Position numbers and translations under genes: made by a program. From assembly GCA_016207775.1 (NCBI GenBank), contig JACQOU010000389.1, forward strand, positions 1 to 34,890: 34,890 nucleotides of DNA, in the 5' to 3' direction. The notes below the pieces were generated by a model. That model was given only the letters and a program-made list of their open reading frames with translations, had not been told where the DNA came from and did no database searches. This document shows positions 2,215 to 20,991 of this stretch, in pieces; positions within the stretch are counted from its first letter, which is position 1; every line of letters starts with the position of its first letter. Source of the stretch: Deltaproteobacteria bacterium. Its GTDB lineage: Bacteria > Bdellovibrionota > FAC87 > UBA2466.

Positions 2215-3597
2215 ATGAGACGAAGCTATTTTGTTTTCCAACCATTCAGGGCAATTGCCTTCCTTGCAGTCGCCTTCACGTTATTTTCATCCAGGTTTGG
2301 TCTTGGAATGGCTTACGTGGATATTTGTAACCGAGAGAATGAGTGTAAGAAGTTATCGCGATTGGTAATGGGTACGGATCACCTCGTACAGAGTGATTGG
2401 ACAAAAGAGGGCCAGCCAGAACCGACTAATGAAGAGGCTTTCAGAGTGTTGGACGAGGCCGCGAAGCAGGGAATCAATTTTTTTGATACGTCCCCCATTT
2501 ATGTTGGAGGTGTCGAGCACAGACTTGGAAAGTGGAAGAAATCCAGGGCAACGCAAATAATGGATAACGACTTCTATAAAGAACCAAGTCTTAACCCCGA
2601 TAGAAAATTGTATGTTTTGTCTAAAGGAGGATTTCCATTCGACCTATTTTGGGCAAAGCGTTTGGAACGGGGTACTCACTCCGCAGAATTAACGAGAGAG
2701 CTTCAAAGACAAGCGATTTTGGATGCCGGGGCGACGGTTCTTGAAGATGGAACACTTCCCTTAAAAGAAGTTCCTCCGGGCACCTACGCCAGCCGTCTTT
2801 TCGGTAGCCAGTCACAGATTACTGAAAGAGTTGCAGAGGAGCTTGGCCACTCCGTACGAAATCTTAATGGTGACATTACTATTTACCTCATGCACCGGGA
2901 TGACGGCGATGCCGTGAGGTTCAATGCCGTTGTAAGACCGCAAACAGCAGTGAGAACGATCATGCAGGCAGTAGGGACTCATGAAGTGGCAAGCAAGTTT
3001 TGGATGCTCGGTTGGTCTAATTGGCAGACCGAACGGATCAATGAATCCATTAAACTGGCTGAAGATAATAAAGACTTGCCCAAACCTATCATCAATAGCC
3101 CCTACTTTTCTTTGTTTGAAATGAGCGAACGCACGATTCACGCGTTAGGTGTTCAAGTAACTCATAAGGAGATGATGGATCCGAATTTTCAAAAAGGAAT
3201 TAAAATCATGCCGTATTCGCCGTTGGGCGGTTTCAGTATTTTAGATAAGCCACACCCGACTTGGGAAAATGCAAAAAAAGCCGCAAAAGAGAAATATGAA
3301 AAGGGCGATCCGTATTGGCAGAATGTCTTTCCTTCGATTTTTACGGCGGAAAATGAAGCCCGTTGGCATCGAGTGGTGAAATTTACCGATTTATTTAACA
3401 AACGACACGGTACTGATTATACGGTTGACCAGATGGTTAATGCTTACGCGCTTGCACATCCAAGGACGGATTTACTTGCAGTGGGTGCGATCACGGTTGA
3501 ACAAGTCCGGCGAACAGTGCAATCGCTTCACCTGTCCAAAATGCTGAGCCCTCAAGATCTCGAGTATCTCTATGGTGGTGCAACAAGGAGCGAGTGA
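2215..3597 (+). CDS. Aldo-keto reductase family oxidoreductase with a twin-arginine-like leader.
   Basis: AKR-type motifs GINFFDTSPIYVGG..HRLGKW and IMPYSPLGG. The ATG at 2215 is preceded by AGGAG (2203..2207); the track start at 2209 is a TTG two codons upstream. N-terminus is MRRSYFVFQPFRAIAFLAVAFTLFSS. Confidence 0.8.
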   Translation: MRRSYFVFQPFRAIAFLAVAFTLFSSRFGLGMAYVDICNRENECKKLSRLVMGTDHLVQSDWTKEGQPEPTNEEAFRVLDEAAKQGINFFDTSPIYVGGVEHRLGKWKKSRATQIMDNDFYKEPSLNPDRKLYVLSKGGFPFDLFWAKRLERGTHSAELTRELQRQAILDAGATVLEDGTLPLKEVPPGTYASRLFGSQSQITERVAEELGHSVRNLNGDITIYLMHRDDGDAVRFNAVVRPQTAVRTIMQAVGTHEVASKFWMLGWSNWQTERINESIKLAEDNKDLPKPIINSPYFSLFEMSERTIHALGVQVTHKEMMDPNFQKGIKIMPYSPLGGFSILDKPHPTWENAKKAAKEKYEKGDPYWQNVFPSIFTAENEARWHRVVKFTDLFNKRHGTDYTVDQMVNAYALAHPRTDLLAVGAITVEQVRRTVQSLHLSKMLSPQDLEYLYGGATRSE

Positions 3598-5373: not shown

Positions 5374-5389
5374 TGCAATTGGATTGCCA
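5374..5389 (-). promoter_or_regulatory. Putative sigma-54 (-24/-12) promoter for the GHKL ATPase gene.
   Basis: The minus strand reads TGGCAA-tccaa-TTGCA with canonical GG/GC spacing, about 48 nt upstream of the GTG at 5325. Confidence 0.55.
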
Positions 5390-5628: not shown

Positions 5629-5644
5629 TGGCAGGCTGTTTGCA
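5629..5644 (+). promoter_or_regulatory. Putative sigma-54 promoter for the OM beta-barrel gene.
   Basis: TGGCAG-gctgt-TTGCA, 33 nt upstream of the ATG at 5678. It lies inside the N-terminal extension of track ORF 5606..6553, which supports the downstream start. Confidence 0.6.
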
Positions 5645-9584: not shown

Positions 9585-9672
9585 GAGTCCTCTCCAATTG
9601 TTCAGCAGGATATGCTGTTGCAGTTGACTTAGTCCAGGCGAGAAATCTTGTCAATTTGAGTCGGTATTGGGA

Positions 9673-10173
9673 CTAGTGATGGGTCCGTCCGTGGTGCCTC
9701 CCTCTTCTTTCTTCATCTTCTTCTTCCGGCCAACGAAGCTCTCGTTTCCGGTAGCTTCCCTCTTCTCCCTCTTCCTCGTCCTCGATGCGACTTCTTGAAC
9801 GACTGTGGCGAGGCAGCTCCTCCTCGCTCCACCGAGAGCGTCCACCCTGACGCCCGATCTCCTCGTAGAATTCAGGTCCTCGTTCGCGAGCGACGGTTTC
9901 CCCGCCTTTGCGCCCGATGTCCTGATAGAACTCCCTTCCTCTTTCCCGCGCGACGGTTTCCCCGCCTTTGCGTCCGATCTTCTCATAGAATTCACGGCCT
10001 CTTTCCCGCGCGACGGTTTCACCCCCTTTGCGGCCAATTTCCTCGTAGAATTCGGGTCCTCGTTCGCGCGCGACAGCCTCCCCCCCTTTGCGACCGGCTT
10101 CTTCTACAGTCATCCGGCCGCGGCCGCGCCGTAAACGGGGTTCATCGTATGCTGCAGATCCTCGTTTAGCCAT
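9673..10173 (-). CDS. KGG-repeat stress-induced protein (YciG/GsiB type).
   Basis: Four and a half 20-aa repeats of GRKGGE(A/T)VARERG(P/R)EFYxxI. I moved the start to the ATG at 10173, which follows AGGAGG (rc of 10181..10186). Charged low-complexity C-terminal tail. Confidence 0.85.
   Translation of the reverse strand: MAKRGSAAYDEPRLRRGRGRMTVEEAGRKGGEAVARERGPEFYEEIGRKGGETVARERGREFYEKIGRKGGETVARERGREFYQDIGRKGGETVARERGPEFYEEIGRQGGRSRWSEEELPRHSRSRSRIEDEEEGEEGSYRKRELRWPEEEDEERRGRHHGRTHH
9829..10095 (-). repeat. In-frame 60-bp tandem repeat (about 4.4 copies) encoding the KGG repeats.
   Basis: Units 9901..9960 and 9961..10020 are nearly identical. Units 9841..9900 and 10021..10080 are slightly diverged. 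Period is exactly 60 bp. Confidence 0.9.
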
Positions 10174-10185
10174 TCGTAATCCTCC

Positions 10186-10223
10186 TTGTGCCATTGGTGC
10201 TACCTTGTGCCATTAGTGCTACC
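10186..10223. repeat. 19-bp tandem duplication in the KGG leader region.
   Basis: ttgtgccattggtgctacc (10186..10204) is followed directly by ttgtgccattagtgctacc (10205..10223), with one mismatch. It abuts the KGG gene RBS. Confidence 0.85.
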
Positions 10224-10294
10224 AACCTCTGGTGTTTGCTGGCGTAGCGACCCTGTTGTTTTGTGAACCTTTAGCATTTGATTTTTAATGCTAT

Positions 10295-10310
10295 TGCAAC
10301 GTTGGTGCCA
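10295..10310 (-). promoter_or_regulatory. Putative sigma-54 promoter for the KGG gene.
   Basis: The minus strand reads TGGCAC-caacg-TTGCA, a perfect match to the TGGCAC-N5-TTGCW consensus, about 120 nt upstream of the ATG at 10173. Confidence 0.7.
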
Positions 10311-10320
10311 CCGCAGATCT

Positions 10321-10336
10321 TGGCATTTTGATTGCA
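10321..10336 (+). promoter_or_regulatory. Putative sigma-54 promoter for the FAD/Rieske oxidoreductase gene.
   Basis: TGGCAT-tttga-TTGCA, 136 nt upstream of the ATG at 10473. Its -24 element lies 10 bp from the -24 element of the opposing promoter. Confidence 0.65.
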
Positions 10337-10472
10337 TTTACAGGCAAGGAACGGTCCGTGCGAGAAGTTACTTTGTTGCATTAGGCAATCCTCACCGGAC
10401 ATTGGATATAGCGGATGCGAAACGGGCAAAAAGCGAGCGAGGCGGATAAGAAGAAAGGCGGGAGGTAAACTT

Positions 10473-11993
10473 ATGAATAAGCCACTTTGGGCGGATGGGC
10501 GTGAGAGTTACGGATTTCCCCGTCTTGAGCGCAAATGCATTACCGAAGTTTGTGTGGTTGGAGCAGGAATTGCTGGACTAACGACCGCTGTTCAACTGGC
10601 ACGTGCTGGAAGAAAAGTCGTGCTCTTGGATAAAGGTTCTATTGCTGGGGGCGAAACAGGATGCACAACTGCCCACATTACAGAAGTGCTTGATATGCGC
10701 TACGCAGATTTGATCAGTAAATTCGGTATGGAGAATACCCGCCAGGTACGGGCTTCCAGCAGAGCGGCCATGGATTTGATTGCTCAGTTCGTGAAGGAGC
10801 TTAATATTCAATGTGCTCATCAATCTTTGTCAGGGTACCTTTACACTGAGCTGGAAGAGGATGTCGGCGAATTGGAGGATGAACTTGCTGCCATGGAATC
10901 GGTTGGCATTGAGGCACACCTAAAGAGTGAGATACCTCTTCCCTTTCCGATTAAGACCGCAATCGAGATTGCTGATCAGGCGCAATTTGACCCACTCGCC
11001 TATTGTTCTGCGCTCGCAGAGGAAGTCATCCGTCATGAGGGACACATTTTCACGGATACTGCAGTGAAAAACGTTCAGGATCGGCAACCGTGCATCGTTC
11101 AAACGGGCATGGGCGAAGTCATAGCAGACGCTGTAGCGATTTGCACTCATGTGCCTGTAATTAATCGATTGTGGATACATACGAAAATAGCGCCCTATCG
11201 CAGTTATGTCGTTGCAGCACCGATTGAGGGGCTCGGTGATCCTCCAAGCCTTTTTTGGGATACGGCTCAACCCTATCACTTTACTCGAATGCAAAAGAAG
11301 AATGGGACGATGTATTTAATAGTCGGCGGTGAAGATCATAAGACCGGTCAAATAGAAGATACGGCCAGTTGCTATTTCAGACTTCGAGAGTACCTCTGGT
11401 CTCGCTTTGGTATACGACAACCTCAGTTTCAATGGTCAGGGCAAATGATTGAGCCTATCGACGGGCTTCCTTTTATTGGCAAGAACGCCTTTTCCCAACA
11501 AGTCTACATTGCTACCGGTTTCTCGGGCACTGGGATCACCTTTGGTACACTCGGCGGAATGTTAATCGCCGAGGAAATACTTGGAATTCAAAATAGCTGG
11601 CAGGAGCTCTTTCGAGCCACTCGGAAAAGCACTGTGGCCGGTTCAGTGAATTTCATTAGTGAGAATGTTGATTACCCGATCAACGTCGTTAAACAACGCT
11701 TGGAATCCAGGCCGACGGCCAATGAAGTGAATGTAGATGAGGGCAAAGTGGTTTATAGAAATGGCAAGAAGATAGCGCTTTACCGAAAGCCATCTGGAGA
11801 AGAAATCGCCCTGTCGCCGGTCTGTACTCATCTCGGCTGTTACGTTAACTGGAATAACGCTGAAAAGACGTGGGACTGCCCGTGCCACGGCTCCCGATTT
11901 AGCGTCGAGGGGCAAGTGATCAACGGTCCAGCTACTGCAGCCCTTGCGCCTGACACATCAGATTGGGAGGAACCTGGAGATAAAGTGGCCTAA
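10473..11993 (+). CDS. FAD-dependent oxidoreductase fused to a C-terminal Rieske [2Fe-2S] domain.
   Basis: Dinucleotide-binding VCVVGAGIAGLTTA at the N-terminus and Rieske CTHLGC...CPCHGSRF at the C-terminus. The ATG at 10473 is preceded by GGGAGG. The track start at 10332 is an upstream TTG that overlaps the promoter. Confidence 0.85.
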   Translation: MNKPLWADGRESYGFPRLERKCITEVCVVGAGIAGLTTAVQLARAGRKVVLLDKGSIAGGETGCTTAHITEVLDMRYADLISKFGMENTRQVRASSRAAMDLIAQFVKELNIQCAHQSLSGYLYTELEEDVGELEDELAAMESVGIEAHLKSEIPLPFPIKTAIEIADQAQFDPLAYCSALAEEVIRHEGHIFTDTAVKNVQDRQPCIVQTGMGEVIADAVAICTHVPVINRLWIHTKIAPYRSYVVAAPIEGLGDPPSLFWDTAQPYHFTRMQKKNGTMYLIVGGEDHKTGQIEDTASCYFRLREYLWSRFGIRQPQFQWSGQMIEPIDGLPFIGKNAFSQQVYIATGFSGTGITFGTLGGMLIAEEILGIQNSWQELFRATRKSTVAGSVNFISENVDYPINVVKQRLESRPTANEVNVDEGKVVYRNGKKIALYRKPSGEEIALSPVCTHLGCYVNWNNAEKTWDCPCHGSRFSVEGQVINGPATAALAPDTSDWEEPGDKVA

Positions 11994-12776: not shown

Positions 12777-12792
12777 GGGCATGACGCTTGCA
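12777..12792 (+). promoter_or_regulatory. Putative sigma-54 promoter for the CBS-pair gene.
   Basis: GGGCAT-gacgc-TTGCA with GG/GC spacing conserved, 99 nt upstream of the ATG at 12892. Confidence 0.5.
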
Positions 12793-13860: not shown

Positions 13861-13876
13861 TGCATTAGTCATGCCA
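13861..13876 (-). promoter_or_regulatory. Putative sigma-54 promoter for the 149-aa gene.
   Basis: The minus strand reads TGGCAT-gacta-ATGCA, 27 nt upstream of the ATG at 13833. This would give a short leader that still includes the RBS. Confidence 0.55.
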
Positions 13877-13965
13877 CTTACTAACGCTTTTTGCCCGCTT
13901 CGCATGTGCTCTACTCCAAAAACCTGTTTAGTAAACAAAGCGGACAGATGATATAACTCTTCCTT

Positions 13966-18322: not shown

Positions 18323-18338
18323 TGCAATGGGTATGCCA
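18323..18338 (-). promoter_or_regulatory. Putative sigma-54 promoter for the DUF883 trio.
   Basis: The minus strand reads TGGCAT-accca-TTGCA, 63 nt upstream of the ATG at 18259. It lies in the intergenic region shared divergently with the HK/NtrC genes. Confidence 0.65.
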
Positions 18339-18463: not shown

Positions 18464-19372
18464 ATGCGGAAAAGCCAAACTCGTTGCAAGCTTTCGCAGA
18501 TTGATCCCCCCACTGAATTCAAATGGGCAGCTTTCTACGAAACAACAGCTGATGGTCAAGCTAACCAAGCTCTCACAAGGGAAATCAAAGATCGCGTTCG
18601 TGCAGAGGACGAGCGGAAGCGGGCAGAAATGGAGTTAAAGCGGCAGGCTCAGGAACTTGCTCGCTCGAATGCGGAGCTTGAATCTTTCGCCTCGATTGCC
18701 TGTCACGAACTTAAAGAACCCTTGCGGTCAATTGCCACGTATGTCCAGCTCTTGTTAAGTCGCTATAGAGGACAATTCGATAAGGATGCAGATACTTTTT
18801 TGGACTTTGTGGCGGATGCTGCAAAGCGATCCCAAAGGCTTATCGATGACCTTTTTGCTTATTCACAAGTTGTCGGGGAACCACCGGAAATAGAGTTGGT
18901 CGACGTGAACATGTTGCTGAGGCAAGTGCTCAACAATCTTAAAGTAATGATTGATGAGAGTCGGGCCACTGTTAGTTACGATCCCTTACCCAGCGTCTTG
19001 GCCGACTCCACGCAGCTGAGTCTAGTGTTTCAAAACTTGCTCAACAATGCGATAAAGTTTCGATCAGCGGCTAATCCGATTGTCCATATTTCTGCGAAAC
19101 GAAGAGAAAACGATTGGGTCTTCTCGGTAAGTGACAATGGAATTGGTATCGACCTCAGTAATAATGCAAATGTAAACCGGATGTTTCGGATCTTTCATAG
19201 GCTGCATCCTGTTGGAGCTTATCCAGGAAGCGGGATTGGGCTCGCAATCTCTAAGAAAATCATTGAAAGGCACGGCGGTACCATCTGGGTGGAATCCAAA
19301 CCAGAAGAGGGATCCACTTTCTATTTTGCGATTCCCCATAATGGCAACAATGCAATTTGCCCTATTGGGTGA
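18464..19372 (+). CDS. Soluble histidine kinase without a recognisable sensor domain.
   Basis: H-box SIACHELKEPLRSI, N-box NLLNNAIKF, and G-boxes SDNGIGI and GSGIGLAISKKI. Only about 60 aa plus a coiled coil precede the H-box. No TM segment. Confidence 0.85.
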   Translation: MRKSQTRCKLSQIDPPTEFKWAAFYETTADGQANQALTREIKDRVRAEDERKRAEMELKRQAQELARSNAELESFASIACHELKEPLRSIATYVQLLLSRYRGQFDKDADTFLDFVADAAKRSQRLIDDLFAYSQVVGEPPEIELVDVNMLLRQVLNNLKVMIDESRATVSYDPLPSVLADSTQLSLVFQNLLNNAIKFRSAANPIVHISAKRRENDWVFSVSDNGIGIDLSNNANVNRMFRIFHRLHPVGAYPGSGIGLAISKKIIERHGGTIWVESKPEEGSTFYFAIPHNGNNAICPIG

Positions 19373-19524: not shown

Positions 19525-20991
19525 ATGGATCGCAGACAAATTGAAGTGCTTGTTGTGGACGACGAACAAGCAACCTGTGAGTTTGTGGGTAGCCTCTTGA
19601 AAAAACATGGGTATGAGCCAGTGCTTGCGTTGAGTTTGAGTGACGCTGAGAGGTTGTTAGATCAAAAGTACTTCCCAATTGTTGTCTCAGATGTGGAATT
19701 GGGCGGTCCAGAAAGCACCACTTTGCTTCATCATATTAACCGACATAATCGCCCATCGCTGGTCATTTATATTACCGGCCAGGCGAGCATTGAGAGTGCT
19801 GTCAAAACCATTCACGAAGGCGCTTTCGATTACATTAGCAAACCCTATGAGCTAAGTGAGATTGAGGTCCGCCTCATCGACGTGGTTGAGAAAGCGATCC
19901 AACATTTGGAAATATTGTCGATACAAGACAATCTGAGTGTTGGTCCGCTTTCGACTATTCCCCGTACGATTGTTGGTAAATCGCCGCCGATGGCAGAGAT
20001 TTACAAAATGATTGCGAAGGCAGCTTTGTCTAGTGATACCGTCCTTATTACAGGCGAGAGCGGGACAGGCAAGGAGTTGGTGGCTAGAGCGATACACGAC
20101 AACAGCGACCGCGCAAAAAATCCTTTTGTTATTGTGAATATTTCGTCCATAGTGGAAACGCTTTTAGCATCTGAACTGTTTGGCCATGTTAAGGGGTCAT
20201 TTACTGGGGCGGTCAGCAGCAAGCGCGGACTGTTCCAGGAGGCGAACCAGGGCACTCTTTTTCTTGATGAAATTGGCGATATCTCCCCAGCTGTGCAGGT
20301 GTCGCTTCTGCGTGCAATCCAGGAGGGGGAGATCAAACCTGTTGGAGGTACAGAGACTCACAAAGTCGATGTACGTATCATTACGGCTACGAACAAAAAC
20401 CTGGACGCGTATGTGAAGGAAGGGAAATTTAGGGAGGACCTGTACTATCGGCTGAAAGTCATTGTGATAGAAATGCCTTCTCTGCGAAAAAGAAAAGGCG
20501 ATATTCCGGATCTTGTTAATTATTTTCTGAGCCGTTCCGCTCAGAAAAGAGGGAAGAAGGTCACGACCATATCGAGAGAGGCCTTGGCTATGCTGCAGGC
20601 TTACTCCTGGCCAGGCAACATTCGGGAACTCGAGAATGCTATTGAGAGGGCAGTTGCTCTTTCGAACACCTCGATGCTATACGCAGAAGACTTTCCGAAG
20701 GAAATACGAATGCCCTCTGAAACTTCTATTGAAAAAGAACTGACTGCGGCATCCGAGCAGGATTCGCCCATATATTCTTTGGAACAAACGGAAAAATCAC
20801 ACATTATAAGGGCGCTGGAGAAAATGAATTTCAATAAAGCCAGGACGGCTGAGCTTCTTGGAATTGATAGGGTTACCCTTTATCGGAAGATTCGTCGATT
20901 AGGAATTCCTTTACGCCCATCTTCTTTTTCTGCCAGCCTAGAGCCCCTGGTTCGAGAACCAGTACTTCGAGAGCCAGTACAAAATAAGTGA
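19525..20991 (+). CDS. NtrC-family sigma-54-dependent response regulator (enhancer-binding protein).
   Basis: Receiver domain (VLVVDDE...VVSDVEL). AAA+ sigma-54 interaction domain (GESGTGKE; GSFTGA, the GAFTGA loop; LFLDEIG; RIITATN; FREDLYYRL). Fis-type HTH (ARTAELLGIDRVTLYRKIRRLGI). GGAGG RBS. Confidence 0.92.
   Translation: MDRRQIEVLVVDDEQATCEFVGSLLKKHGYEPVLALSLSDAERLLDQKYFPIVVSDVELGGPESTTLLHHINRHNRPSLVIYITGQASIESAVKTIHEGAFDYISKPYELSEIEVRLIDVVEKAIQHLEILSIQDNLSVGPLSTIPRTIVGKSPPMAEIYKMIAKAALSSDTVLITGESGTGKELVARAIHDNSDRAKNPFVIVNISSIVETLLASELFGHVKGSFTGAVSSKRGLFQEANQGTLFLDEIGDISPAVQVSLLRAIQEGEIKPVGGTETHKVDVRIITATNKNLDAYVKEGKFREDLYYRLKVIVIEMPSLRKRKGDIPDLVNYFLSRSAQKRGKKVTTISREALAMLQAYSWPGNIRELENAIERAVALSNTSMLYAEDFPKEIRMPSETSIEKELTAASEQDSPIYSLEQTEKSHIIRALEKMNFNKARTAELLGIDRVTLYRKIRRLGIPLRPSSFSASLEPLVREPVLREPVQNK

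Follow-up and report, generated by a model that had tools for sequence, protein, structure and literature searches.

Where does an activator bind when two sigma-54 promoters point away from each other with almost nothing between them? In bacteria, enhancer-dependent transcription has its model in the sigma-54 promoter, with enhancers that reviews place 100-150 bp upstream (PMC7057263). The stretch of DNA analysed here (34,890 nucleotides, referred to throughout as the window) carries, between a gene for a KGG-repeat stress protein and a divergent gene for an oxidoreductase, two predicted sigma-54 promoters placed back to back. Such an arrangement leaves the activator no room between the promoters, so that it must work from a transcribed region or off the DNA. 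It poses three questions: whether two closed complexes can sit side by side, whether one enhancer can serve two promoters from opposite sides, and whether transcription through the enhancer feeds back on activation. The features discussed below are collected in Table 1.

Table 1. Features of the promoter pair, its flanking genes and the candidate regulators, in window coordinates.
Feature	Position	Strand	Remarks
KGG-repeat general-stress protein gene, YciG/GsiB type	9673..10173	-	Pfam KGG 2.7e-21, LEA_5 5.8e-11
Predicted KGG leader	10174..10284	-	111 nt; also -63..-173 of the plus-strand promoter (arithmetic)
19-bp tandem duplication, CCTTGTGCCATTRGTGCTA x2	10184..10223		units 10184-10202 and 10203-10221, one mismatch, repeat continuing to 10223
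Perfect dyad TAGCATT-N8-AATGCTA	10272..10293		spans the predicted KGG start; centre -64 from the plus start
Very probable sigma-54 promoter, KGG stress-protein gene	10295..10310	-	exact consensus match, aimed at the KGG gene; predicted start ~10284
Gap between -24 hexamers	10311..10320		CCGCAGATCT, 10 bp (direct reading)
Very probable sigma-54 promoter, FAD/Rieske oxidoreductase gene	10321..10336	+	exact TGGCAY-N5-TTGCW match in the right orientation; predicted start ~10347
Predicted oxidoreductase leader	10347..10472	+	126 nt; also -63..-188 of the minus-strand promoter (arithmetic)
21-mer ATGCGAAACGGGCAAAAAGCG	10415..10435	+	centre -141 from the KGG start, mirror position of the tandem repeat; candidate regulatory site
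FAD-dependent oxidoreductase gene, C-terminal Rieske [2Fe-2S] domain	10473..11993	+	Pfam DAO 5.4e-48, Rieske 3.7e-14
Second copy of the 21-mer	13885..13905	-	8 nt before the -24 element of sigma-54 promoter 13876..13861
Histidine kinase gene, directly upstream of the activator gene	18464..19372	+	Pfam HisKA, HATPase_c
NtrC-type response-regulator activator gene: receiver, sigma-54 interaction domain, HTH_8	19525..20991	+	Sigma54_activat 1.5e-68, Response_reg, HTH_8 5.3e-14

Identity and geometry of the promoter pair

Direct reading of the sequence and a pattern search of the window both return TGGCACCAACGTTGCA on the minus strand (TGGCAC, spacer CAACG, TTGCA) and TGGCATTTTGATTGCA on the plus strand (TGGCAT, spacer TTTGA, TTGCA). 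The sites face outward, with the edges of their -24 hexamers at 10310 and 10321; in each, the GG and GC dinucleotides are 10 bp apart and the fit to TGGCAY-N5-TTGCW is exact. The original prediction had described two back-to-back sigma-54 matches with this same 10-bp separation, and its geometry proved correct to the base. The gap is too small to hold an activator site. Taking the start as 25 nt past the first G of the GG, the two predicted starts are about 63 bp apart.

The paired sites are identical at 10 of the 11 positions of the sigma-54 consensus, and outside it at none of the five spacer positions and none of the four upstream flank positions. Because the match is confined to positions that sigma-54 reads, their likeness points to selection by sigma-54 and not to an inverted duplication, a hairpin or ancestry as a repeat. 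Independent assembler contigs from two sequencing runs of a groundwater metagenome, each spanning parts of the region, show zero differences; contigs of 372 and 196 bases from different runs span most of the tandem repeat in the KGG leader, and a 1,102-base contig spans both promoters.

That the two sites are genuine sigma-54 promoters, as had been claimed, is very probable on the strength of site statistics, orientation, the activator gene in the window and the result of a simple scan of 9600-10600, which found no sigma-70-like promoter. The strict pattern TGGCAY-N5-TTGCW matches three times in the 34.9-kb window against 0.07 matches expected, a count not attained in any of 100 shuffles; these three best matches in the window are the paired sites and a site at 18338..18323. 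The looser pattern GGCA-N7-TGCW gives 13 matches, where 200 dinucleotide shuffles give 2.7 +/- 1.7. Ten of these 13 sites are intergenic and aimed at a start codon 17-126 nt away, where about 0.15 intergenic, correctly aimed sites would be expected by chance (intergenic share of the window ~11%, estimated from the table of open reading frames); the other three are intragenic, in line with background. The window does not contain rpoN.

The ten correctly placed sites lie between 5374 and 32466 of the 35-kb window, upstream of general-stress-type genes. The genes behind the window's sigma-54 sites include those for the KGG protein, a CBS-domain protein, a DUF2383 ferritin-like protein, an outer-membrane barrel and a GHKL ATPase-like protein; a superoxide dismutase gene, behind one for a small Cys-motif protein, also has a sigma-54 site. 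Between 10473 and 13362 several successive genes have a site each. The other divergent pair present in the window, at 5389..5374 and 5629..5644, has about 240 bp between its sites and follows the enhancer-spacing norm. We found the sequence in four DNA runs from one groundwater study, with no RNA run among the matches.

The ATG of the KGG gene, at 10173, has GGAGG 7 nt upstream, and the gene contains four near-identical tandem coding repeats of about 60 bp, one KGG unit apiece, at 9850-10090. The oxidoreductase gene begins with the ATG at 10473, and its homologues align from residue 1. No relative of the oxidoreductase exceeded 50% protein identity, and the homologue contexts examined were not syntenic. 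A strict sigma-54 site was found in none of 80 loci (667 kb) of distant oxidoreductase homologues, which suggests that sigma-54 control of the oxidoreductase gene is lineage-specific. The NtrC-type protein encoded at 19525-20991 is the sole sigma-54 activator visible in the window and so the candidate regulator; its loop reads GSFTGA, against the canonical GAFTGA.

Leaders and candidate activator sites

From the predicted starts, the leaders of the two genes have the lengths listed in Table 1, and the -100 to -160 zone of each promoter (10187-10247 and 10384-10444) falls within the other gene's leader. This bears out what the original prediction had said of both, namely leaders of about 110 and 125 nt and enhancer zones inside the partner's leader, the latter as a matter of arithmetic. 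The two longest of the ten predicted leaders in the window (38, 24, 111, 126, 26, 89 or 50, 17, 47, ~46 and 23 nt) belong to the abutting pair, for which the chance is 1 in 45, and they lend indirect support to each enhancer zone lying in the partner's leader. Neither leader folds better than its shuffles (z = 0.42 for KGG and 1.45 for the oxidoreductase), and neither has a match in Rfam. The KGG leader contains a possible upstream reading frame of 15 codons (10174-10213, minus strand), with its ATG in the first unit of the tandem repeat and its UAA overlapping KGG codons 2-3; the ATG of the second repeat unit is in frame with KGG.

The tandem duplication in the KGG leader abuts the KGG ribosome-binding site and occupies -126 to -163 of the plus-strand start, its centre at about -145. 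The prediction had placed it at 10186..10223, at enhancer distance from the plus-strand promoter. That repeat is real, being the same one read in another phase, and it lies at the distance stated, but its role as an enhancer found no support, the repeated word having no other occurrence in the window. Each unit consists of two sub-repeats of about 9.5 bp, and all four sub-repeats hold GTGC; the word TTNGTGCYA fits two of the four and also the -24 element of the minus promoter as read on the plus strand (TTGGTGCCA). Judged by its sequence and position, the duplication is a candidate enhancer of the plus promoter or a candidate leader element by the ribosome-binding site, and it could also be a plain, neutral slippage duplication in the 5' leader. 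The TGGCAC words inside it were ruled out as extra promoters, their GG-to-GC spacing being 9 and not the required 10.

Within the control region, the 21-mer in the oxidoreductase leader alone has a second copy that is significant: its two copies are identical at 20 of 21 positions (BLAST E = 7e-4 within the window). Apart from these two strong copies, k-mer counts, a Gibbs sampler and a 21-mer scan found no motif common to the ten upstream regions above background, and a GTAA-N3-TTAC enhancer was not found near the window's sigma-54 promoters. The dyad at the predicted KGG start, a possible operator or bend site, is overlapped by an IHF-like match with one mismatch (10271-10283); neither the dyad nor this match is significant alone (~0.2-0.5 expected by chance), and we set the IHF site aside because one-mismatch matches are too common, at 1.4 per kb.

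Abutting and divergent pairs elsewhere

We searched metagenomes with the pattern TGCAA-N5-RTGCCA-N(4-24)-TGGCAY-N5-TTGCA, which matched at least 120 contigs. Among the matches listed, at least about 17 distinct ones lie between divergent reading frames, whose genes we named by Pfam, and many are true hairpins or tandem (phage-type) arrays. Alongside the 10-bp gap between the KGG and oxidoreductase genes of the window, abutting pairs occur between genes for a lipoprotein and a membrane protein (contig L205, gap 12 bp), between flgA and flgB (L149, 14 bp), between genes for an MshEN-T2SSE (type IV-pilus-type) ATPase and a TPR-MshEN protein (L199, 16 bp), and between phaZ and a glutathione transferase (GST) gene in Burkholderiales-type contigs (L104, L110 and L127, 5-8 bp). 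Three further contigs (L111, L121 and L188) have near-identical promoter pairs with a gap of 4 bp and, to judge from the sequences, probably come from the same phaZ/GST locus. Because gap length varies among the related phaZ/GST contigs, no fixed helical phase between the promoters seems to be needed. The distance from promoter to first start codon is often short in the flgA/flgB and other abutting pairs, so the long leaders would be particular to the window locus and one side of L205, and not general to the layout.

We also arrived at the high-GC contig L205 by a separate route, starting from the closest KGG homologue, which over the repeats is 82% identical; by its gene order the contig forms a further KGG island, independent of the first, that shares the promoter layout. 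Its positions 190-900 comprise, in order, the lipoprotein gene, the sigma-54 pair, the membrane-protein gene (with a leader of about 125 nt), a third perfect sigma-54 site and the KGG gene. Sigma-54-type promoters are present in three of five other KGG-gene contexts (L205, L209-211 and, in weaker form, L208). Upstream of a low-GC KGG homologue in L206/L207, at 2700-3000, lies GTTTAC-N14-GGGATT, which we take to resemble a SigB-type promoter. Going by these sequences, different lineages appear to control the KGG stress gene family through different sigma factors.

Tandem arrays of outward-facing sigma-54-type pairs are found on eight contigs of marine and estuarine metagenomes (L132, L141, L157, L163, L166, L193, L097 and L148), with gaps of 10 or 20 bp, units 5 nt apart, periods of 47 and 57 nt, and conservation limited to the sigma-54 consensus positions. 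Another contig, L105, has five pairs with a gap of 10 bp over 5.8 kb.

The literature searched describes divergent pairs with sites between the promoters, and also topological coupling. We found no abutting sigma-54 pairs described there, an absence that is no proof. In known divergent sigma-54 pairs the shared sites lie between the promoters. The window pair resembles zraP/zraSR and hycA/hypA of E. coli in having two outward sigma-54 promoters in one intergenic region between divergent units. In those cases, however, as measured on the MG1655 genome, 139 bp (zraP/zraS) and 113 bp (hycA/hypA) separate the -24 hexamers, and the spacers hold repeated or palindromic sequences, presumably the ZraR and FhlA sites; the 10-bp gap of the window pair leaves no room for sites between the promoters. 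Each of the two E. coli spacers also has an RpoN holoenzyme binding site (PMC8743547).

A similar likeness exists with Desulfovibrio vulgaris, where two divergent operons (type III secretion on pDV1; orp) each have a sigma-54 promoter and share one cognate activator (PMC4641369; Fievet et al. 2011 cited there). The activator motif predicted there lies in the common upstream region (PMC4641369), whereas the window pair has no such region. [quoted passage not shown] The dmp pair differs in having a sigma-70 partner and intervening sequence, while both window promoters are of the sigma-54 type and abut.

An enhancer in a leader has precedents, since the flagellar sigma-54 activators FleQ of Pseudomonas aeruginosa and FlrC of Vibrio cholerae reportedly work from sites downstream of the start, as a reading with activator sites in the leaders requires. 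Those are single promoters, however, and the activator sites in the window's leaders are candidates only. Enhancer-independent sigma-54 activators that lack a DNA-binding domain are represented by FlgR of Helicobacter and Campylobacter and CtcC of Chlamydia. Activation of that type would account for promoter pairs too tightly packed to accommodate an enhancer, but the window's activator, unlike FlgR and CtcC, has the HTH_8 DNA-binding domain.

How the pair may work

We think it likely that the locus contains two working sigma-54 promoters with activator sites outside the pair. The promoters would then be part of a dense sigma-54-dependent stress regulon in an uncultured groundwater bacterium, and an RNA polymerase-sigma-54 closed complex would form at each site, one directed leftward into the KGG gene and the other rightward into the oxidoreductase gene. 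With 10 bp between the -24 elements, the activator would not bind between the promoters, and its sites must therefore be sought outside, in the two long leaders. A site in either leader lies on the upstream side of one promoter and on the downstream side of its partner, so one cluster could serve both by DNA looping; the original prediction had proposed shared enhancer sites, or else mutual interference. Divergent firing would add negative supercoils to the short stretch between the starts, as at dmp Pr/Po (PMC5175336). Sigma-54 dependence in vivo, the position of the enhancer, co-activation, the binding of the polymerases together or in turn, and all steps after polymerase binding are what we infer.

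Whether two closed complexes would fit can be gauged from the closed-complex structure, in which DNA is ordered from about -33 to -5, an RpoN domain lies on the -24 element and the activator is above the cleft (PMC5505868). At the window pair the -33 edges of the two sites overlap by 4 bp; simple B-DNA arithmetic separates the -24 contacts by 15-16 bp, or about 50 A, and puts them on roughly opposite faces. On these figures it is plausible that two closed complexes bind side by side, and the overlap of the ordered stretches means that simultaneous binding is not guaranteed. The same overlap favours a reading in which the pair accommodates one polymerase at a time, with the two genes competing or alternating, or with one site acting mainly as a brake on the other. 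Repression has been proposed for the sigma-54 holoenzyme of E. coli at some genes (PMC8743547). We give such mutual exclusion little credence, because each of the two near-perfect sites comes with a gene whose ribosome-binding site is good, and because the -24 contacts are about 50 A apart in the arithmetic above. The persistence of smaller, varying gaps (4-8 bp) in related Burkholderiales contigs also speaks against a strict stereo-specific arrangement, though alternation could still occur with such gaps.

Both promoters might also be real and yet need no enhancer, the activator acting from solution or from distant sites and the leaders serving post-transcriptional control, for instance through the CACAAGG words or the 15-codon upstream frame. 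Several observations suit this idea: no motif common to the window's upstream regions was found, hardly any intergenic DNA lies upstream of several window promoters (such as that at 12777-12792), and start-codon distances are short in other abutting pairs. In addition, the repeat proximal to the Shine-Dalgarno sequence, GCACAAGGAGGA, with its repeated CACAAGG words running into the ribosome-binding site, resembles the core of a CsrA site, which is ACARGGA. In the upstream copy of the repeat, however, GGU replaces GGA; the leaders have neither a significant fold nor an Rfam match; the 21-mer, being found upstream of another sigma-54 promoter, would act at the level of DNA; and the only activator visible in the window carries HTH_8. 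On balance we regard an arrangement without an enhancer as unlikely. We attach next to no probability to the 42-bp stretch being the operator of some other dimeric protein, or a palindrome arisen by chance. Many of the metagenome matches are true hairpins with complementary N5 segments (for example L099, L158 and L190), but the N5 segments and flanks of the window's paired sites are complementary at none of nine positions, eight more single sigma-54 sites precede genes in the window, and only 0.07 strict sites are expected there by chance.

Two working promoters with activator sites outside the pair are thus the reading that we prefer. A bolder and rather doubtful extension is that abutting pairs form a recurrent, compact two-way switch, in which an activator cluster in a leader would fire both closed complexes, and transcription would then sweep the activator off and supercoil the 63 bp between the starts, leaving the two genes coupled or alternating by geometry. 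The presence of the same layout at flgA/flgB, at the gene for the pilus-type ATPase, at phaZ/GST and at the second KGG island suggests a general design, one that is undescribed in the literature searched. The roughly ten sigma-54 promoters at general-stress-type genes add to the case for a general stress response run by sigma-54 in some lineages.
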